From Waterburya sp. (lineage in GTDB: Bacteria > Cyanobacteriota > Cyanobacteriia > Cyanobacteriales > Xenococcaceae): 64,000 bases of DNA. Made by a program: the position numbers and the translations under genes. Below are positions 1,688 through 8,562 of the stretch, one piece after another (position 1 is the first letter of the stretch; the number at the start of each line of letters is the position of its first letter). The DNA is taken from NCBI GenBank assembly GCA_965217895.1, contig CBDCJV010000002.1, positions 4,896,001-4,960,000 on the forward strand. Reading direction: 5' to 3'. Under the pieces are notes generated by a model. It saw only the letters and a list, made by a program, of their open reading frames with translations. It had not been told where the DNA came from and did no database searches.

Positions 1688-1816
1688 CACTTTAATTCGT
1701 TCAATAACTCAGTTCACTGGCTAAAAATTCTGGTTAAAGTAGCCTCATCACAAGACAAAAAGGTGAATGTGCAAGTCCTATTTATTGATACTTTGGTATC
1801 TTTCAATACATTTTTG

Positions 1817-1842
1817 CGTGTCATTATTTTATTTTTGAAACA
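1817..1842. repeat. 26-bp quasi-palindromic cassette-boundary site 1
   Basis: CGTGTCA-TTATTTTATTTT-TGAAACA, 9 bp from the stop of the 1852..2319 gene. Confidence 0.8.
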
Positions 1843-1851
1843 TTATAGCTA

Positions 1852-2319
1852 CTAAAGAAATCTACTTAAATCAAATTCTTCACCACTAGATTCGGCACTA
1901 AATCTCTCCGCATTAAGAATTAAAACTAATCTTTCTGCATAATCTACCGCCCCACGTAATTCATAGCTCAGTTTCTCTAGACCGCCGTTGGCATATTCTT
2001 CAAATATAAGAACTCTTTGTGCTTCTATAGCTATATTCTCCGTCGAGAGAATTTTGATATCTTGAGTCTCGGTAACCGCAATAAGTTTAATCAGGCGATC
2101 GTAACCACGAGAGATAAATACTTCTAAACTGATTGGTGCAGGTTCACTTTGGGATATTTCCGTCAGCTTGACTCTTTTTTGATGTTTGACTCCTAAACTG
2201 GCTGCAAAAGCAACAATGTCTGCATAGGTTTGAAATGCTCCCGTTGTTCCTTTTGTATCTAATAGTTTTTGAACCAACTCAGCTTTGTCTTTTGCTATTT
2301 TTATTCTGGGTAAAGCCAT
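1852..2319 (-). CDS. DNA phosphorothioation (dnd)-associated protein 4 family
   Basis: RIKIAKDKAELV...FQTYADIVAFAASLG...IFEEYANGGLE matches the cyanobacterial dnd-associated protein 4 pattern. Confidence 0.8.
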   Translation of the reverse strand: MALPRIKIAKDKAELVQKLLDTKGTTGAFQTYADIVAFAASLGVKHQKRVKLTEISQSEPAPISLEVFISRGYDRLIKLIAVTETQDIKILSTENIAIEAQRVLIFEEYANGGLEKLSYELRGAVDYAERLVLILNAERFSAESSGEEFDLSRFL

Positions 2320-2395
2320 GTTTTCTAAAAATAAAGGAATGAGGAGGCAAATTAAAAATGATTCTGAATAAGCTAAATTTTGCTATTGTGTTATT

Positions 2396-2421
2396 GGTGT
2401 CAAAATTAAAATAATGAAACA
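2396..2421. repeat. 26-bp cassette-boundary site 2
   Basis: GGTGTCA-AAATTAAAATAA-TGAAACA. Confidence 0.8.
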
Positions 2422-2431
2422 AAACTCTCAT

Positions 2432-2704
2432 TTATTTTAGTTTTCCAATACCTTTCATAACTTCAACTATCTTTAAATTTAAAGCGAGATTATTGTCTTC
2501 TCTGCAAAGAAAAGCTGCTTTTGTAAGATATTTAATGCTTCTTTTCGCATTTTCGTGATTTAGAGCAGCTATACCCTGAGCATAGTATCCATGTTCATCT
2601 ATTGATTTTATCTGGATTTAACTGAATAACTTCTGAAAAATCGGCGATCGCACCGATTAAATCTCCTAAATATTTACGAACAAATCCCCGATAATAGATA
2701 AAGG
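2432..2704 (-). pseudogene. tetratricopeptide-repeat protein remnant (5'-truncated, frameshifted)
   Basis: Manual translation YYRGFVRKYLGDLIGAIADFSEVIQLNPD (TPR consensus), then a frameshift into IDEHGYYAQGIAALNHENAKRSIKYLTKAA...LK*. No start codon before site 3. Confidence 0.7.
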
Positions 2705-2758
2705 TGTGTCACAATTAAATTAATGACACAATTGAGTATTTCATTTTAAGCAATTATC

Positions 2759-3031
2759 ATGCTGATTAACGGCAAAAAATACAGTTATCGCCAGTTAATT
2801 GAAGAGACTGGCCTATCTAGAAGCACTTTGCATCGACGTATTAAAACTCTTAAAGATTCAGGTGTTCCCTTAACAATGGGAGCTATTATACAGTTTCCTA
2901 CTACCTGGGCTTTTCACGATCGCCAAGGAAAATTTTATTCTTCTAAAACTGACTACGCAATTAAAAACAACATTCCCTACTATGAAATGTTTCAAAATTC
3001 TAATTCTGACACAAATAAAGATATAAATTAA
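2759..3031 (+). CDS. small helix-turn-helix protein
   Basis: SYRQLIEETGLSRSTLHRRIK is HTH-like. Confidence 0.65.
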   Translation: MLINGKKYSYRQLIEETGLSRSTLHRRIKTLKDSGVPLTMGAIIQFPTTWAFHDRQGKFYSSKTDYAIKNNIPYYEMFQNSNSDTNKDIN

Positions 3032-3037
3032 ACAAAA

Positions 3038-3640
3038 ATGTTTACAGACTTATTAAATTTATCAATTAATCAAGATAGCTCAACTCTACAAGATCAGGTC
3101 TTAAGCCTGTCAGGTATGACTTGGGAAGATTACGATCGCCTAACTCAAGAATCGAATAGCTATCGCCTATCTTATTCAGAGGGAATCATCACTATCGTGT
3201 CGCCATCTTATAATCACGAGGTTATCGAGCGAACAATATCTGGGTTAATTACTGCTTACTGTCGTAAGTATAGTTTGCCCTATTTTCCGATGGGTTCAAC
3301 TACGCTAAAAAATCCTCCTTTAACTGGCAAAGAACCCGATAGTTCTTATGCCTTCCGTACTCGTAAGCCTATCCCCGATCTGGCGATAGAAGTCGTTTAT
3401 AGCAGTGGTGGTACTGCCGATCTAGATAAATATAAGCTGCTAGGGGTTGGCGAAGTTTGGTTTTGGCAGAATGAAAATATTAAGTTCTACAGGTTAACTA
3501 GCACTGATTATCAAGAGATAGAAACAAGCGATCGCCTATCTAGATTAAGTTCTACTTTTTTAATTGATTTTATCAACCGAGGATTAAGCGAAAGCCCTCT
3601 AACTATTGAGGCAGATTTTGTTCAAGCTCTACCTGATTAA
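3038..3640 (+). CDS. Uma2 family (PD-(D/E)XK) putative endonuclease
   Basis: MTWEDY, SPSYNHE, KEPDSSY, PDLAIEVV, KYKLLGVGEVWFW. Confidence 0.92.
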   Translation: MFTDLLNLSINQDSSTLQDQVLSLSGMTWEDYDRLTQESNSYRLSYSEGIITIVSPSYNHEVIERTISGLITAYCRKYSLPYFPMGSTTLKNPPLTGKEPDSSYAFRTRKPIPDLAIEVVYSSGGTADLDKYKLLGVGEVWFWQNENIKFYRLTSTDYQEIETSDRLSRLSSTFLIDFINRGLSESPLTIEADFVQALPD

Positions 3641-3646
3641 TCACAA

Positions 3647-4153
3647 TTAAATCTCTGCCATAACTCGCTTGATGTGCTGATAATTATCTAGTCCTTCGTC
3701 TATCTCAAAATCGTCTAAATTGAGAATTTCCAAGTTTAAAAATTCTGCTTGCTTGGCTTCTTCAATCTTTTTTCGTCTTCTGGCTATTTTTTTAGCCTCA
3801 ACTTCTGCCATCGGATCGAATTTTTCAATCAACCAAGTTGACTGTTTTTCTAGCTCGCCATTTTTATTGACAACATCTATTTTGCTGTAGCGAATAAATT
3901 TGTATCGTTCGTATTTATAGCCAGTTTTGAGGGGTTTGAAACCAATTAACTCTTTAATTTCTTTGTCAGTTAGTGTTTCTCTAGATTTGGCGTAAATTTC
4001 AAACTGGGCATAAGCCTGTATTCTTTCGTTAGAGGCGATCGCATCTAAGGCATTGCGTCTGATTATTTCCATATCCAGAATTGCTGGAAAATCAGTATCG
4101 TATTTGTCTTGGCAGCTTTTATTAGAGGTGCATTCAATCTGGTCTTGATTCAT
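3647..4153 (-). CDS. hypothetical protein
   Basis: 168-aa charged ORF, convergent with Uma2; no family recognised. Confidence 0.6.
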   Translation of the reverse strand: MNQDQIECTSNKSCQDKYDTDFPAILDMEIIRRNALDAIASNERIQAYAQFEIYAKSRETLTDKEIKELIGFKPLKTGYKYERYKFIRYSKIDVVNKNGELEKQSTWLIEKFDPMAEVEAKKIARRRKKIEEAKQAEFLNLEILNLDDFEIDEGLDNYQHIKRVMAEI

Positions 4154-4279
4154 GAGACAATTATTATTTTTAGCTTATATGTATCAAATATTTAATTATG
4201 ACACCTAAAGGCGATCGCTGTTGTAAATTCTGTAGGATAAGTGTGTAGCAAAGATGTTTTTTAAATACCAAAAATCAGC

Positions 4280-5371
4280 ATGGCTAAACCTAAAAAGACT
4301 GAAGAAAGAGACGGTTGCGCTATTCTAATGCGTCGCACGTTTTTATTTTTTGTTAGTTTGGCGATCGCAAAATTGCTCAATGAATATTTTTCCGTAGCTG
4401 CTAATCGTACTAAATCTTGGAATTTTTTACAAAGCCTCAAGGGTAAATATATTAGCTGGAGAACGGGAAAACCAGAGCCAGAGATAATTAAACCACTGCC
4501 AAAACAAGATTCGGCAATTAATTCTCAACCTGATAGTAGCAAAAAAAAGAGCGCGGAAGACAATAAACCAAATTCATCATCATCTCAGACAGTAAAGCCT
4601 GGAAAACCGATTAAATTTGAGAAAAAGACTTTGTTTGGAGTATCGTTCTATCAAACAACCATCGATTTACAAGATCCTGAAACTTTCATTACTATTGGTT
4701 TAGCTAATAATGCGCTACAAGCTAACAGCAACAAAGTATCTTCAGGGGACGAACCGTTTACGGAAATGGTTAATCGTGCTAAAGCAGCAGTAGCAATTAA
4801 CGGAACATTTTTTAGCATTGACGAAGAAAAGCGAGTCTTGGGAAATATGATCGCTAGTGGAAAGTTCCTGAAATATAGTCCTTGGGAAAATTATGGTACA
4901 ACCCTGGGTATTAAAGCAGAAAATCAATTAGAAATGGTTACAGCCAGAGAATCAGGTCAACCAGATTGGTCAAAACATTGGTTCTCGCTTACCTGTGGCC
5001 CTAGATTGCTTAAAGACGGAAAAATTTGGCTAAAACCAGAGTTAGAGGGCTTTCGTGACCCTCATATATTTGATCGGGGAGGTAGAACCGCGATCGGTTA
5101 TTCTCAAACAGAAGATAAGATCTATCTGGTTACCTTTCTCTCAATTCTTTCTTTAGAAGATGAAGCTAAATTAATGAGAGGGATTGGTTGTTATCAGGCA
5201 ATGAATTTAGATGGTGGAGCATCACGTTCTTTAGCCTATCGCGATCGCATTATCGTTCCCGCAGGACGTTCTTTAACCAACATTATTTTAGTTTACGATA
5301 CACAAAACCCTGCTCCAGAATCCTTAAAAGAATCCTGGCATAAGTTTCAAGTGCGGTCTGAAGCAAGTTAA
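4280..5371 (+). CDS. phosphodiester glycosidase family protein (NAGPA/DUF2233-like)
   Basis: AINGTFF, GPRLLKDG, RTAIG, AMNLDGGAS motifs. Confidence 0.85.
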   Translation: MAKPKKTEERDGCAILMRRTFLFFVSLAIAKLLNEYFSVAANRTKSWNFLQSLKGKYISWRTGKPEPEIIKPLPKQDSAINSQPDSSKKKSAEDNKPNSSSSQTVKPGKPIKFEKKTLFGVSFYQTTIDLQDPETFITIGLANNALQANSNKVSSGDEPFTEMVNRAKAAVAINGTFFSIDEEKRVLGNMIASGKFLKYSPWENYGTTLGIKAENQLEMVTARESGQPDWSKHWFSLTCGPRLLKDGKIWLKPELEGFRDPHIFDRGGRTAIGYSQTEDKIYLVTFLSILSLEDEAKLMRGIGCYQAMNLDGGASRSLAYRDRIIVPAGRSLTNIILVYDTQNPAPESLKESWHKFQVRSEAS

Positions 5372-5381
5372 TGATGTCTAA

Positions 5382-5505
5382 GGCGTTGGTGATTTAAGTA
5401 ATGACTTACAATATATTACTGCTCGTAGCTATTAGCTTTTAAAAAGTTGTATGTTTTTGGTTGATAAGTAAAATATGGGTTTAGCATTACGCATTCACCA
5501 ACGCC
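5382..5505. mobile_element. MITE-like element (GGCGTTGGTGA...TCACCAACGCC)
   Basis: 11-bp terminal inverted repeats; related copy at 52361..52560. Confidence 0.7.
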
Positions 5506-5534
5506 ATGTTTAATTACCAGTTAATCAAATTTTG

Positions 5535-5560
5535 TGTGTCAAAAATCAATAAATGAAACA
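5535..5560. repeat. 26-bp cassette-boundary site 5
   Basis: TGTGTCA-AAAATCAATAAA-TGAAACA, 24 bp from the MOSC stop. Confidence 0.8.
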
Positions 5561-5584
5561 TTTGATGATTTTTAAGATGTGTTT

Positions 5585-6124
5585 CTAAACTCGTTCAAGC
5601 GATCGATAGGGTTTGGCTGGAAGTTGAATACGAATATTATCCCCCGCACTTACTACTCCATCCGTTAGCACAATCCCCATAATCCCTGCTTTACGAATGA
5701 TATTGTGTATATCCTTGTCTAGCACGGCTGCCATTAAACCCGCTTTAAAGCCGTCTAGTTGAGCGCAGGGATTTCGTAACCCAGTTATCTGAATTACGGC
5801 TTTTTCACCAACATATAGCTTTGTATCAGTAGGTAAGCTTAATAAATCCATTCCCCTGGTAGTTATATTTTCTCCCATTTGGCCAGGAAGGATATCAAAA
5901 CCTTTTGTTTTTAGTTCATCATGTAATTCTGCGTGAATTAAATGCACCTGTCTTAAATTAGGCTGACTCGGATCTTTAGCTACTCTCGATCTATGTTTAA
6001 CCGTTTCTCCTGCATGAGAATCTCCCTCTATACCCAATCCTGCTATTAGTTTGATGCTTTCTCGGTTGGTTTTACTAAATGAATTGGTTGTACTAAGACT
6101 TACGACGATTACTCTTGCAGACAT
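5585..6124 (-). CDS. MOSC domain-containing protein
   Basis: GIEGDSHAG, RQVHLI, GQMGENITT, RNPCAQLD. Confidence 0.9.
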   Translation of the reverse strand: MSARVIVVSLSTTNSFSKTNRESIKLIAGLGIEGDSHAGETVKHRSRVAKDPSQPNLRQVHLIHAELHDELKTKGFDILPGQMGENITTRGMDLLSLPTDTKLYVGEKAVIQITGLRNPCAQLDGFKAGLMAAVLDKDIHNIIRKAGIMGIVLTDGVVSAGDNIRIQLPAKPYRSLERV

Positions 6125-6150
6125 TAAAATATTTTCTCTTTTATAGATAA

Positions 6151-6176
6151 TGTATCACTTCTTTATTTGTGACACA
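6151..6176. repeat. 26-bp cassette-boundary site 6
   Basis: TGTATCA-CTTCTTTATTTG-TGACACA, 26 bp upstream of the MOSC ATG. Confidence 0.8.
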
Positions 6177-6234
6177 TTTGAGTAACGTTGGTAATTTAAT
6201 GAAATCCCATTTTTTCGAGTCTTTTCTCGACCAA

Positions 6235-7686
6235 TCACAATATTTGAGACAGTTTCAAGATGCCTTGCTCTATTTGAGTTTCGTCTAGTTGGGCATAACC
6301 GAAGATAAATTCTCCTTGATGTTGAGGTTTTAAATAATATTCTCTAGCACTTATCAAGCCAATTCCAGCAGTAGCAGCCTTTTGAATAGCAATATCATCC
6401 GCTAAAACCGTTTCAATTTTTACCATCAGATGAATACCTGCATTTTCTCCCAAGATAGTTACTCTCTCTCCAAAATAGTCTTTAAGAGCCTTAATTAAAA
6501 CTTGGCGACGCAGATTGTAAAGATGTCGCATTCGCCGAATATGCCGTTCAAAATGTCCTGATGCAATCCAATCGGTAAGGGCATACTGTTCTAAAATTGG
6601 ACAAAAGCGATCGCATAACCACTTAGCTTTACTAATGATTGGTATCCATGCAGGAGTCACAACTAAATAGCCAATTCGTAGAGACGGAAAGAGAATTTTA
6701 GAGAAAGTACCAATATAAATTACCGACTGACTTCGATCCATTCCTTGCAAAGCGGGAATCGGTTGTTCTCCATAACGATACTCGCTGTCGTAATCGTCTT
6801 CAATAATTAGGGTGTTTGTTTTTTGCGCCCACTGAAGAAGTGCTATTCTTTGAGTTAACGACATAGTAACCCCTGTAGGAAATTGATGTGAAGGTGTGAC
6901 ATAAACCAGCTTGAATTTTTGACGATAATTACTAAGAAAAGATACGTCTAAACCTTCGCAGTTCACAGGTATAGGTTGTAAATTAGCCCTTTGTCCCATA
7001 AAACAATAGCGTGCGCCAAGATAACCAGGCTCTTCCATCGCTACCCAATCTCCTGGATCTAAGATTAGACGAGCAATCAAGTCTAATGCTTGCTGAGAAC
7101 CGTTAATAATAACTATTTGTTCTGGAGTACAGCGAACCGCACGGGAACGTCCTAAATAGTTAGCTATTTCTAACCTCAAAGGAAAATATCCCGCAGCATC
7201 AGCAGCATAATTAAGTAAAGTCGAATTTTCACAGTGGCGAGCCAAAAACTTCCGCCATTGTTGCATCGGAAAATACTTTACCGCAGGATTACCGTAGCGA
7301 AAGCTAATTTCATAATCTGGTTCTGAGACTTCTAAATGTTTGATAGAGGTTAAACTCAAGCCAAATTGGGACAAGGTACAAGCCTTAGATACTTTAGCTG
7401 TTACAGGTTCTATTGACTGCGATTTTAACCACTCATCGGGTATTTGCTGACAAATATAAGTACCACTACCACGACGAGTTTCTAAATATCCCTCGCTTTC
7501 TAACTGTTCGTAGCTTTGAACTACCGTAGAGCGAGAAATAGTTAAAGACTTTGCCAAACTTCGAGATGAAGGTAGTTTTTGGTTAGGCTTGAGTCTTCCC
7601 TCTAATACAGCATCACGAATTTTTTCTATTAGCTGCTGATACAGGGATGTTTTAGAAGCGCGATCTAGATGGATAGCTAAGTCCAT
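6235..7686 (-). CDS. MocR/GabR-family GntR regulator with PLP-dependent aminotransferase domain
   Basis: GntR HTH (LPSSRSLA...SRSTVVQSYEQL), VTPSHQFPTG, IIEDDYDSEYRY, GTFSK. Confidence 0.95.
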   Translation of the reverse strand: MDLAIHLDRASKTSLYQQLIEKIRDAVLEGRLKPNQKLPSSRSLAKSLTISRSTVVQSYEQLESEGYLETRRGSGTYICQQIPDEWLKSQSIEPVTAKVSKACTLSQFGLSLTSIKHLEVSEPDYEISFRYGNPAVKYFPMQQWRKFLARHCENSTLLNYAADAAGYFPLRLEIANYLGRSRAVRCTPEQIVIINGSQQALDLIARLILDPGDWVAMEEPGYLGARYCFMGQRANLQPIPVNCEGLDVSFLSNYRQKFKLVYVTPSHQFPTGVTMSLTQRIALLQWAQKTNTLIIEDDYDSEYRYGEQPIPALQGMDRSQSVIYIGTFSKILFPSLRIGYLVVTPAWIPIISKAKWLCDRFCPILEQYALTDWIASGHFERHIRRMRHLYNLRRQVLIKALKDYFGERVTILGENAGIHLMVKIETVLADDIAIQKAATAGIGLISAREYYLKPQHQGEFIFGYAQLDETQIEQGILKLSQIL

Positions 7687-7695
7687 AATTTTACC

Positions 7696-7743
7696 AAGTG
7701 GACTGATGTAAAAAACTTAAATTGGCTCTTGAATCATACCAAT
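7696..7743. promoter_or_regulatory. putative MocR-family operator
   Basis: AAGTGGAC...AATTGGCTC direct pair plus inverted ACCAAT between the divergent MocR and flavin-binding genes. Confidence 0.45.
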
Positions 7744-7788
7744 ATTCTTTTTATTCTGATCAGAGAAAAACAACTACAAAAATAACTA

Positions 7789-8454
7789 ATGTCTGATTCT
7801 GATAATCTTCAAGTAACTAAACGCAGTAAAATCAAACGCTTACCTAAACGAGGTAGTCAAGAGCGAGAACTGATCTACGATATTTTAGATGAAGCACTGA
7901 TAGCCCATGTGGGATTTATTACTGACAATCAGCCTTTTGTAATTCCGATGGCATACGGCAGAGAAGGCGATCGCCTATATCTTCATGGTTCTTCTGTTAG
8001 TCGCTTGCTTAAAACCTTAGAAAAAGGTGTTGATGTATGTTTCACCGTAACGTTACTAGATGGACTAGTAATTGCCCGCTCTTTGTTTCATCATTCAATG
8101 AATTACCGCTCTGTAGTCTTGTTTGGTAAAGCCAAGCTAGTTGAAAGCGAAACCGAGAAAATGACCGCTCTACGAGCTTTTACAGAACAAATGATCCCTA
8201 AACGCTGGTCAGATGCCCGTCTCCCTAATTCCCAAGAATTAAAAGCCACAACTGTTCTATCTTTTCTTATTGAAGAAGGTTCGGCAAAAGTTCGTACGGG
8301 TTCACCATCAGATGATGCAGAAGATTACGCATTGCCGATTTGGGCGGGAGAATTGCCCCTAAAAATAACACCAGGAGTTCTTATCCCAGATCCTAAGCTT
8401 ATAGAAGAAATTACACCGCCATCTAATTTGACCAATTACCGTCGAGGAAAATAA
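7789..8454 (+). CDS. pyridoxamine 5'-phosphate oxidase-like flavin-binding protein
   Basis: YLHGS, LDGLVIARSLFHHSMNYRSVVLFG. Confidence 0.9.
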   Translation: MSDSDNLQVTKRSKIKRLPKRGSQERELIYDILDEALIAHVGFITDNQPFVIPMAYGREGDRLYLHGSSVSRLLKTLEKGVDVCFTVTLLDGLVIARSLFHHSMNYRSVVLFGKAKLVESETEKMTALRAFTEQMIPKRWSDARLPNSQELKATTVLSFLIEEGSAKVRTGSPSDDAEDYALPIWAGELPLKITPGVLIPDPKLIEEITPPSNLTNYRRGK

Positions 8455-8562
8455 GAATTAAACTAAGTCTGACAGGTGGCGCATAGGCTTAGTTTTACCG
8501 CACTACCGATAACAGTAATTATCGGCACTGCCTTTTGAAAACATCTAAGGCGATCGCCATCC

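Follow-up and report, generated by a model that had tools for sequence, protein, structure and literature searches.

An array of 26-bp sites beside a predicted dif site in Waterburya and related cyanobacteria, with a small helix-turn-helix protein as its likely binder

A 64-kb stretch of the Waterburya sp. genome (GCA_965217895.1, contig CBDCJV010000002.1, positions 4,896,001-4,960,000 of the forward strand; hereafter the window, whose coordinates are used below) carries a cluster of 26-bp quasi-palindromic sites among small accessory genes. The original prediction took these sites for recombination or transposition ends that shuffle single-gene cassettes, and the question raised by the locus is whether the sites are crossover points at all. 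The sites form a cluster beside a 28-bp dif-like palindrome, co-occur with the gene of a helix-turn-helix (HTH) protein, are capped at a fixed distance by an NtcA-like box and are inherited as whole sites. With these observations in hand, we consider it an even call that the array is an HTH-bound accessory or organising element beside a predicted dif site and not a cassette shuffler. The elements that define the array are as follows.

1796..1809, no strand: NtcA-like box of the form GTA-N8-TAC; left border of the conserved unit, separated from the outermost site by exactly 7 bp
1817..1842: site 1, centre TT (plus strand); 9 bp from the stop codon of the dnd_assoc_4 gene (dnd4)
2396..2421: site 2, centre AA
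2705..2730: site 3, centre AA; candidate autoregulatory operator, with the HTH start 28 bp downstream
2759..3031, plus strand: HTH protein of 90 aa; HTH_24, E 2e-7; family-restricted
2988..3013: site 4, centre CT; within the HTH 3' end, position kept in relatives
4180..4205: site 5, centre TT; missing from close relatives without the phosphodiester glycosidase (NAGPA) gene
5535..5560: site 6, centre CA; 24 bp from the stop codon of the MOSC-domain gene
6151..6176: site 7, centre TT; 26 bp upstream of the MOSC start
8502..8529, no strand: 11-6-11 dif-like palindrome (ACTACCGATAA CAGTAA TTATCGGCACT), single copy; right end of the unit

The window thus holds seven sites (1817, 2396, 2705, 2988, 4180, 5535 and 6151). 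Six of them had been listed before with exact coordinates and sequences, and the seventh, at 2988-3013, had been overlooked; it scores highest and falls within the 3' end of the HTH open reading frame (ORF), so that the sites are not all intergenic as had been stated. The 12-bp spacer, described as invariant, is constant in length and varies in sequence, with a T and an A fixed around the 2-bp centre. The consensus reads TGTGTCA-N4-T-NN-A-N4-TGACACA with one variable arm position, and 43 distinct spacers were counted. The distances from sites to genes were as first given, namely 28, 26 and 26 bp to ATG codons, 9 and 24 bp to the stops of dnd4 and MOSC, and 10 bp to the frame end of a TPR gene remnant. 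The conserved unit is wider than the 1817..6176 first proposed and extends from 1796 to 8529.

The strict pattern found these seven sites alone in the whole 5.29-Mb genome, in line with the earlier impression by eye that the remaining 58 kb of the window held no further copy. In the window, the site pattern gave 15 strand matches against 3.4 expected, a number reached in 0 of 100 shuffles. In a genome scan with a family position weight matrix (PWM) built from 101 related sites, the seven sites scored 21.5-32.4 bits and the next best match 14.4 bits, and 3 Mb of Markov sequence gave 0 matches at ≥14 bits.

The scan of relatives that had been suggested likewise returned matches that were clustered, not spread genome-wide. 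With a refined pattern, 26-bp sites were found in 37 of 45 family genomes and 6 of 9 genera, with one cluster per genome, and the strict pattern matched 19 of 24 genus relatives, mostly with one cluster apiece. A scan of one genome per species yielded 29 stretches, of which the multi-site ones came from Waterburya, Pleurocapsa, Xenococcus, Xenococcaceae or unclassified cyanobacteria records; the six non-cyanobacterial matches that were mapped were each a single site. Since the strict pattern and the PWM place all sites of the genome in one cluster, a genome-wide regulon was ruled out. Two genomes, G006 (99% complete) and G009 (93% complete), had no sites, HTH gene, dnd4 or dif-like match, through loss or an assembly gap. 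A dispersed GC-rich palindromic repeat in genome G035 (L004, L030) has the same outer arms and a 12-bp spacer, with 20 strand matches genome-wide, and is a different element. HIP1 octamers are ~4-fold enriched 10-30 bp from site edges (54 vs ~13 expected in 690 flanks, partly by shared descent), and one of them lies 5 bp from site 4180, where the NAGPA block begins.

The palindrome at the right end of the unit consists of two 11-bp arms and a 6-bp spacer, occurs once in the Waterburya genome and is present in 37 of the 45 family genomes. In genomes G210 and G274, it lies upstream of an Xer-like tyrosine recombinase gene, at ~150 bp and 40 bp respectively, without an array (L220, L289). The Waterburya ortholog of this gene (G000:C2:1453149-1454159) is intact and lies 1.76 Mb from the site, the distance being 1.2-2.3 Mb in four closed genomes. 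Its best NCBIfam matches are XerC and XerD, below the cut-off, and the R, K, HxxR, H and Y motifs are visible. Orthologs were found in 22 of 24 genus relatives and, at ≥59% identity, in 13 of 101 genomes of the order; all 8 strong dif-like matches (E < 1e-4) fall among these 13. Moreover, in 11 of 30 loci of the recombinase family the gene is adjoined by an 11-6-11 palindrome of its own, which is marginal in one case. From this pattern we strongly infer that the 28-bp site is the target of a single Xer-family recombinase, and the two likely constitute a new single-recombinase Xer system. A link to Xer/dif, as originally suspected, exists, through a separate 28-bp site 2.3 kb away and not through the 26-bp sites. 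As the strict dif pattern occurs in only 3 of 151 class genomes, this type of dif is patchy and not phylum-wide.

In the accessible sections of earlier work, dif prediction failed for five of five cyanobacteria (PMC3025954), the cyanobacterial dif was called unknown in 2019 (PMC6416890) and a separate 'Cyan' subgroup was placed in lieu of Xer (PMC8138268). Literature listings, with subscription papers outside their reach, contained no description of the array or of the 28-bp site. Related recombinases occur elsewhere in these genomes. Many Xer-family paralogs are present at L248-L263 (G216, G039, G207 and others), 11 of them in G216 and several with an adjoining 11-6-11 palindrome of their own; these are probably plasmid or island resolution modules. 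The Waterburya genome has a plasmid Xer-family copy at C1:44087 and a broken copy at C2:592866. Genome G038 has two dif-like sites (L213 on C24 and L232 on C67), one of which abuts two repeats that resemble those of CRISPR arrays.

By co-occurrence of its gene with the 26-bp sites, the HTH protein is the best candidate for a protein that binds them. The gene is present in 35 of 45 family genomes, every one with sites, and never occurs without them; the two site-bearing genomes that lack it are fragmented and have 1 and 2 site matches. Among 1.84 billion representatives, relatives elsewhere amounted to a single close cluster and a single partial one. Synonymous changes exceeded non-synonymous ones in 8 of 8 comparisons of HTH codons. 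In 63 HTH genes, a site lies a median of 20 bp upstream of the called start, with centre AA in 56. The structural model (pLDDT 76) matched only generic HTH folds (best Z 5.1, rmsd 2.6 over 45 residues), and the HTH was not found as part of a longer recombinase among longer proteins, which is weak evidence. Taken together, the HTH protein likely binds the 26-bp sites. HTH genes with degenerate flanking sites (<14 bits) at L207:2882-3160 and L288:1261-1602 possibly mark a separation of the HTH from the array.

Other binders were considered. The Xer recombinase fits poorly: the inner arms had been likened to Xer/dif cores, yet the 26-bp arms averaged -12.6 bits on a matrix of the local dif arms, compared with +14.8 for real arms, and the inner ATAA/TTAT motifs were present on both arms in 5 of 300 sites. 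The dnd4 product was rejected, since of five array genomes examined for the gene, three gave no match, and in other genera the gene occurs without sites. The 26-bp arms resemble parS half-sites; a parS/ParB system was rejected, as TIGR00180 was not found in the Waterburya genome and is present in 22 of 45 genomes without tracking the array, and no arm pair had a spacer below 7 bp. The TnpC-like DUF6262 protein is not a required part either, being absent from the Waterburya array; its only copy in the genome lies in an unrelated triple-recombinase element 250 kb away. That element (G000:C2:5147875-5153061; L054, L058, L059, L064), with three tandem tyrosine recombinase genes, DUF6262 and a DnaB-type helicase-like ORF, looks like an intact Tn554/RIT-like element unrelated to the array.

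In relatives, the elements follow one another as site, dnd4, one or more sites, HTH, site, variable genes, often MOSC, one or more sites and the 28-bp dif-like palindrome. In 23 complete arrays, the distance to the dif-like site is 0.12-3.2 kb for the nearest 26-bp site and 1.0-8.7 kb for the farthest; the nearest site in the window is 2.3 kb away. Minimal arrays of ~1 kb (L181, L270, L277) contain only dnd4, HTH, four sites and dif, and in G266 and G287 sites flank the palindrome on both sides. The array stays beside the dif-like site across six genera while its other neighbours change. Site polarity points towards dif in 116 of 155 cases, counted over kin that are not independent, and away from it in G286 and G288; an embedded -10 promoter as the cause of the AA polarity was not supported. 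At the opposite end, homology to close relatives stops at 1779-1792, just outside the NtcA-like box. GTA-N8-TAC was found at the +7 offset in 25 of 691 site flanks and at most twice at any other offset. It is the NtcA consensus according to the available portion of PMC3898017, and 1796-1809, which satisfies it, is a predicted NtcA site by sequence.

In the mechanism that we propose, the HTH protein would bind the 26-bp sites, one of them at its own promoter. The bound array, capped by NtcA, may act on Xer recombination at dif, comparable to plasmid cer/psi, or may position the dif region, comparable to MatP/matS. The setting would be cells in which no cell-division FtsK was found, the sole FtsK-domain match in the Waterburya genome being a 1784-aa ORF of an unrelated operon. 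Ordinary insertion, duplication and deletion would bring passenger genes in between the sites and let them decay there, and the sites would look like cassette borders because selection spares them while passengers turn over. In an extension that we hold only tentatively and think somewhat improbable, the locus would be a cyanobacterial dif under a new kind of control in these multiple-fission cyanobacteria, where a dedicated HTH protein on a 26-bp array of variable length, capped by NtcA, replaces FtsK in the timing of Xer recombination and in the choice of chromosome copies, and the array also collects foreign genes.

Several observations weigh against an accessory or organising element. The dif-like site lies 8-21% of the chromosome from dnaN, taken as an origin proxy, in five closed genomes and is not opposite to it, and no GC skew was found in the genome. 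The Xer gene and the dif-like site also occur without an array in L289, L220, L213 and L218, so the array is dispensable for dif in general, and G006 keeps the Xer ortholog though it lacks sites, HTH and dif match. The distance from the nearest site to dif varies ~25-fold, compared with the ~180 bp of accessory DNA of cer, and in G286 sites extend at least 26 kb from dif. Site number (3-9 per array) rises with array length (rho 0.83, n=23, with kin not independent). Site 4180 is new together with NAGPA and has the opposite polarity to 5535. Finally, two candidate deletions from site to site were recognised; like the two preceding observations, they fit a recombination model equally. In the clean one, the single site of L205 and L285 combines the left flank of one L202 site with the right flank of the next, and L202 has a 192-aa gene between two direct sites at this position. 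In the plausible one, site L045:8756, the left flank of which has diverged, agrees with one neighbour over positions 1-10 and with a second over 11-26. Because one clean and one plausible deletion of this kind were found among 374 sites, some recombination between sites may occur.

An alternative is a cassette system in which crossover takes place at the 26-bp sites and is catalysed in trans, by Xer with the HTH protein as adaptor or by another enzyme, so that passengers are added and removed beside dif; we judge this improbable. In its favour, the site is a dyad of 26 bp whose centre is asymmetric (of 297 sites, 212 have AA/TT, 50 CA/TG and 10 TA/AT), site number scales with cargo, and cargo order differs in one clade. 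Moreover, of 243 stop codons, 35 are no more than 10 bp away from a site (chiefly those of dnd4, MOSC and a few passengers), and the switch in L045:8756 at 10/11 falls at the edge of the 6-bp spacer. However, the sites mostly do not behave as crossover points, and the shuffling of single-gene cassettes found little support. In 29 breakpoint pairs that have a common flank on one side of a non-coding site and different flanks on the other, the half-site away from the common flank is nevertheless retained with it, at an identity of 0.92 against a background of 0.52. A strict test on 300 sites gave 0 true hybrids and 194 same-site matches. A looser search flagged 17 of 374 sites, which apart from the two cases above look like losses or gains of whole sites, and its informative left-half positions split 15:17 without an excess of left donors. 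In the clean hybrid, the joint falls within 15 identical bases, so that slippage could give it; L190 was rejected as a hybrid since its joint reads ~20 bp past the site.

Orientation and sequencing data argue in the same direction. Core markers have the same orientation in 50 of 51 loci, though both site polarities coexist. Of the 39 AA/TT pairs spaced by less than 260 bp, 28 agree in polarity and yet persist uncollapsed, and adjacent AA/TT pairs share polarity in 88 of 132 cases. The inverted or circular forms that a shuffling system might leave were not seen in the contigs of four runs, which drop rare variants; these contigs held only deletion- or replacement-type joints from related strains, with four joint ends 1-7 bp past a site edge and none inside. 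Nor is a recombinase linked to the sites, in addition to arms unlike those of the Xer site and the 43 spacers. When 12 of the 13 recombinase matches of the genome (the broken one left out) were used as queries against 73 array loci, one incidental XisF-like gene was found ~6 kb from a site and no other recombinase match. In 24 further loci, the matches were a single integrase fragment on the far side of dif and, in a genome without an array, the Xer gene; nothing was found among the sites. The three PF00239 matches of the genome are a Tn3-type resolvase, a broken fragment and the XisF-like gene, and none lies among the sites in the 73 loci. The XisF-like gene (G000:C2:3506076, L053; also L038:9309-10619) encodes a conserved homolog of the large serine recombinase, the N-terminal catalytic motif of which looks altered. 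Orthologs of the NAGPA passenger occur in 4 of 44 other family genomes, 0 of 4 with a site within 1.5 kb.

The array was instead seen to grow by direct duplication of a site together with one flank. Of 623 within-locus site pairs, 7 share a 45-150 bp flank, all in direct orientation, and two of these represent the same arrangement. A VapBC pair in L129 and a DUF2264 gene in L045 lie between such copies, and L272 has four gene-free tandem sites 70-129 bp apart. Genes decay between kept sites, as with the TPR remnant in Waterburya and MocR, MOSC and ORF168 in relatives. Based on these cases, we infer that duplication and deletion with selection on the sites explain the patterns without a cassette recombinase.

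A further alternative is local silencing, in which the HTH protein acts as a repressor of its own gene and of the foreign genes in the island, the sites serve it as ordinary operators and the dif link only reflects an insertion hot spot. The sites 26-28 bp upstream of three starts in the window, the median of 20 bp upstream of HTH genes and the adjoining NtcA-like box are all consistent with this. On the other hand, sites abut stops (median 2.5 bp for dnd4 and 11 bp for MOSC), lie in the HTH 3' end and form gene-free tandems, the centre polarity is unlinked to gene starts (14 AA vs 13 TT by gene family), and the array keeps its place beside dif in six genera with changing neighbours otherwise. 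We therefore think operators of this ordinary kind quite unlikely. That the array is an eroded mobile element integrated at dif in the family ancestor, with sites as old operators or arm-type sites and the HTH protein as repressor or directionality factor, is very unlikely: dif is flanked by TnpC-like DUF6262 in one genus and by a phage-like HNH gene in a second, phage NUMOD1-type proteins show a weak feature-level similarity to the HTH protein (0.81-0.86, of use only as leads) and elements that integrate at dif are described in the accessible part of PMC5357621, but sites, HTH and cap are kept in 6 of 9 genera with purifying selection, which is unexpected for a dead element, no second dif-like junction was found at the far end of the array in the Waterburya genome, 24 of 24 viral-contig matches to the 26-bp site are single sites and the HTH protein had no match among 72,556 plasmids.

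The remaining genes of the unit in the window are listed below.

1852..2319, minus strand: dnd_assoc_4 gene (dnd4), TIGR04062, E 6e-58; usual array resident, dispensable
2422..2704, minus strand: TPR gene remnant, deleted; longer at the same position in L035, L042, L047 and L180 (tblastx), with Pfam TPR on the longer copies
3038..3640, plus strand: Uma2-family passenger, PF05685; same position in L045 and L048
3647..4153, minus strand: 168-aa ORF with no family assigned; intact in L126, decayed in L045, L048 and L074
4280..5371, plus strand: phosphodiester glycosidase (NAGPA), PF09992; recent passenger
5585..6124, minus strand: MOSC-domain gene, PF03473; frequent array resident
6235..7686, minus strand: MocR/GabR-type regulator within the array interval; bounded by sites in L045
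7789..8454, plus strand: pyridoxamine-oxidase-family gene; close relatives have one more site after the gene, none here

Throughout the family, the locus is a hot spot where genes are gained. The genes between sites vary among relatives, as had been proposed, and in the suggested alignment across strains homology often stops within a few bases of a site edge. Insertion of the whole unit into an empty bioD-ldh site was not seen, bioD and ldh being far apart in three closed relatives and on separate contigs in a fourth, and a micro-transposon was rejected since no target duplications were visible by eye in the site flanks. RNA families gave no match at the locus. Between NAGPA and site 6, a ~130-bp dispersed repeat (5379-5506) is 99% identical to C2:4377372-4377480 and has many weaker copies. 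The product of dnd4 is presumably DndE-like; dndD lies at C2:4341237, far from dnd4. The operon with the 1784-aa FtsK-domain ORF (G000:C2:4255003-4270271, L306) also has PAPS reductase-like and cysteine desulfurase-like ORFs, and we take it to resemble a defence system of the BREX/phosphorothioate type.

On the far side of dif, an orphan DUF6262 gene, with short direct repeats ahead of it, starts ~60-80 bp past the dif-like site in L031, L032, L033, L036, L038, L041, L042, L044, L046 and L050. In L045 and L048 the gene has become a pseudogene, and in the Waterburya genome it is gone. In another genus (L133:7338-8021, L142:2270-2944, L134:6360-6614, L275:11293-11817), a gene for a phage-like HNH endonuclease with two C-terminal repeats and a 100-aa ORF sit between array and dif, a possible trace of a dif-targeting element.

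With these results, a concrete 28-bp candidate dif site and its recombinase are now proposed for cyanobacteria, together with a second signal that has its own candidate binder and a fixed NtcA-like cap and is kept beside the dif-like site in six genera. Should the array control Xer, it would reveal how polyploid cells without an evident division FtsK avoid chromosome fusion; if it is a cassette system after all, it would be a new one.

Compared with known systems, the array shares single features with several. The hix and gix sites of serine invertases are 26-bp dyads with an asymmetric 2-bp centre, and the present sites share both; unlike at hix/gix and shufflons, the array shows no inversions, half-site exchange or linked or co-occurring invertase, with low-level inversion possible in contig data. 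In comparison with integrons, no integrase lies by the array, and the variable arm position is often unmatched between the arms (no attC model was run). In the pdif modules of Acinetobacter, small variable gene blocks lie between repeated sites, according to the part of PMC6449649 available. The blocks between 26-bp sites are similar, but pdif sites are XerC/XerD sites placed inversely around a module, and the 26-bp sites miss the local Xer arms and mostly have the same polarity. Where cargo was followed elsewhere (NAGPA, dnd4), it was site-free. MatP is a dedicated protein on repeated palindromes, matS, which occur only in the dif region, where they extend over hundreds of kb and are shorter than the present sites. 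The 26-bp array is on a ~100-fold smaller scale, and no sequence or fold link of its HTH protein to MatP was found.

The accessory protein at psi is ArcA, together with PepA. At cer, as far as described in the consulted sections of PMC5357621, an Xer core acts without FtsK and together with adjacent DNA to which other proteins bind, a global regulator of the host among them. Like cer/psi (PepA with ArgR or ArcA), the present locus has an Xer-type core beside DNA with predicted protein sites. Unlike their ~180 bp at a fixed distance, it has 3-9 discrete sites over 1-9 kb on a chromosome with a dedicated HTH gene, and the nearest site varies between 0.12 and 3.2 kb in 23 arrays. The closest parallel for the core is single-recombinase Xer/dif, in which one tyrosine recombinase uses a near-palindromic site often beside its gene, as outlined in the available text of PMC5357621 and 10.1101/2021.09.12.459815. 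XerS/difSL, XerH/difH, archaeal XerA/dif and Legionella XerL/dif are systems of this kind. The 28-bp site is 11-6-11, single-copy and, in L220 and L289, beside the gene; unlike in those systems, the gene lies 1.2-2.3 Mb away in the four closed genomes, the site is not opposite dnaN, and a 26-bp array adjoins it.

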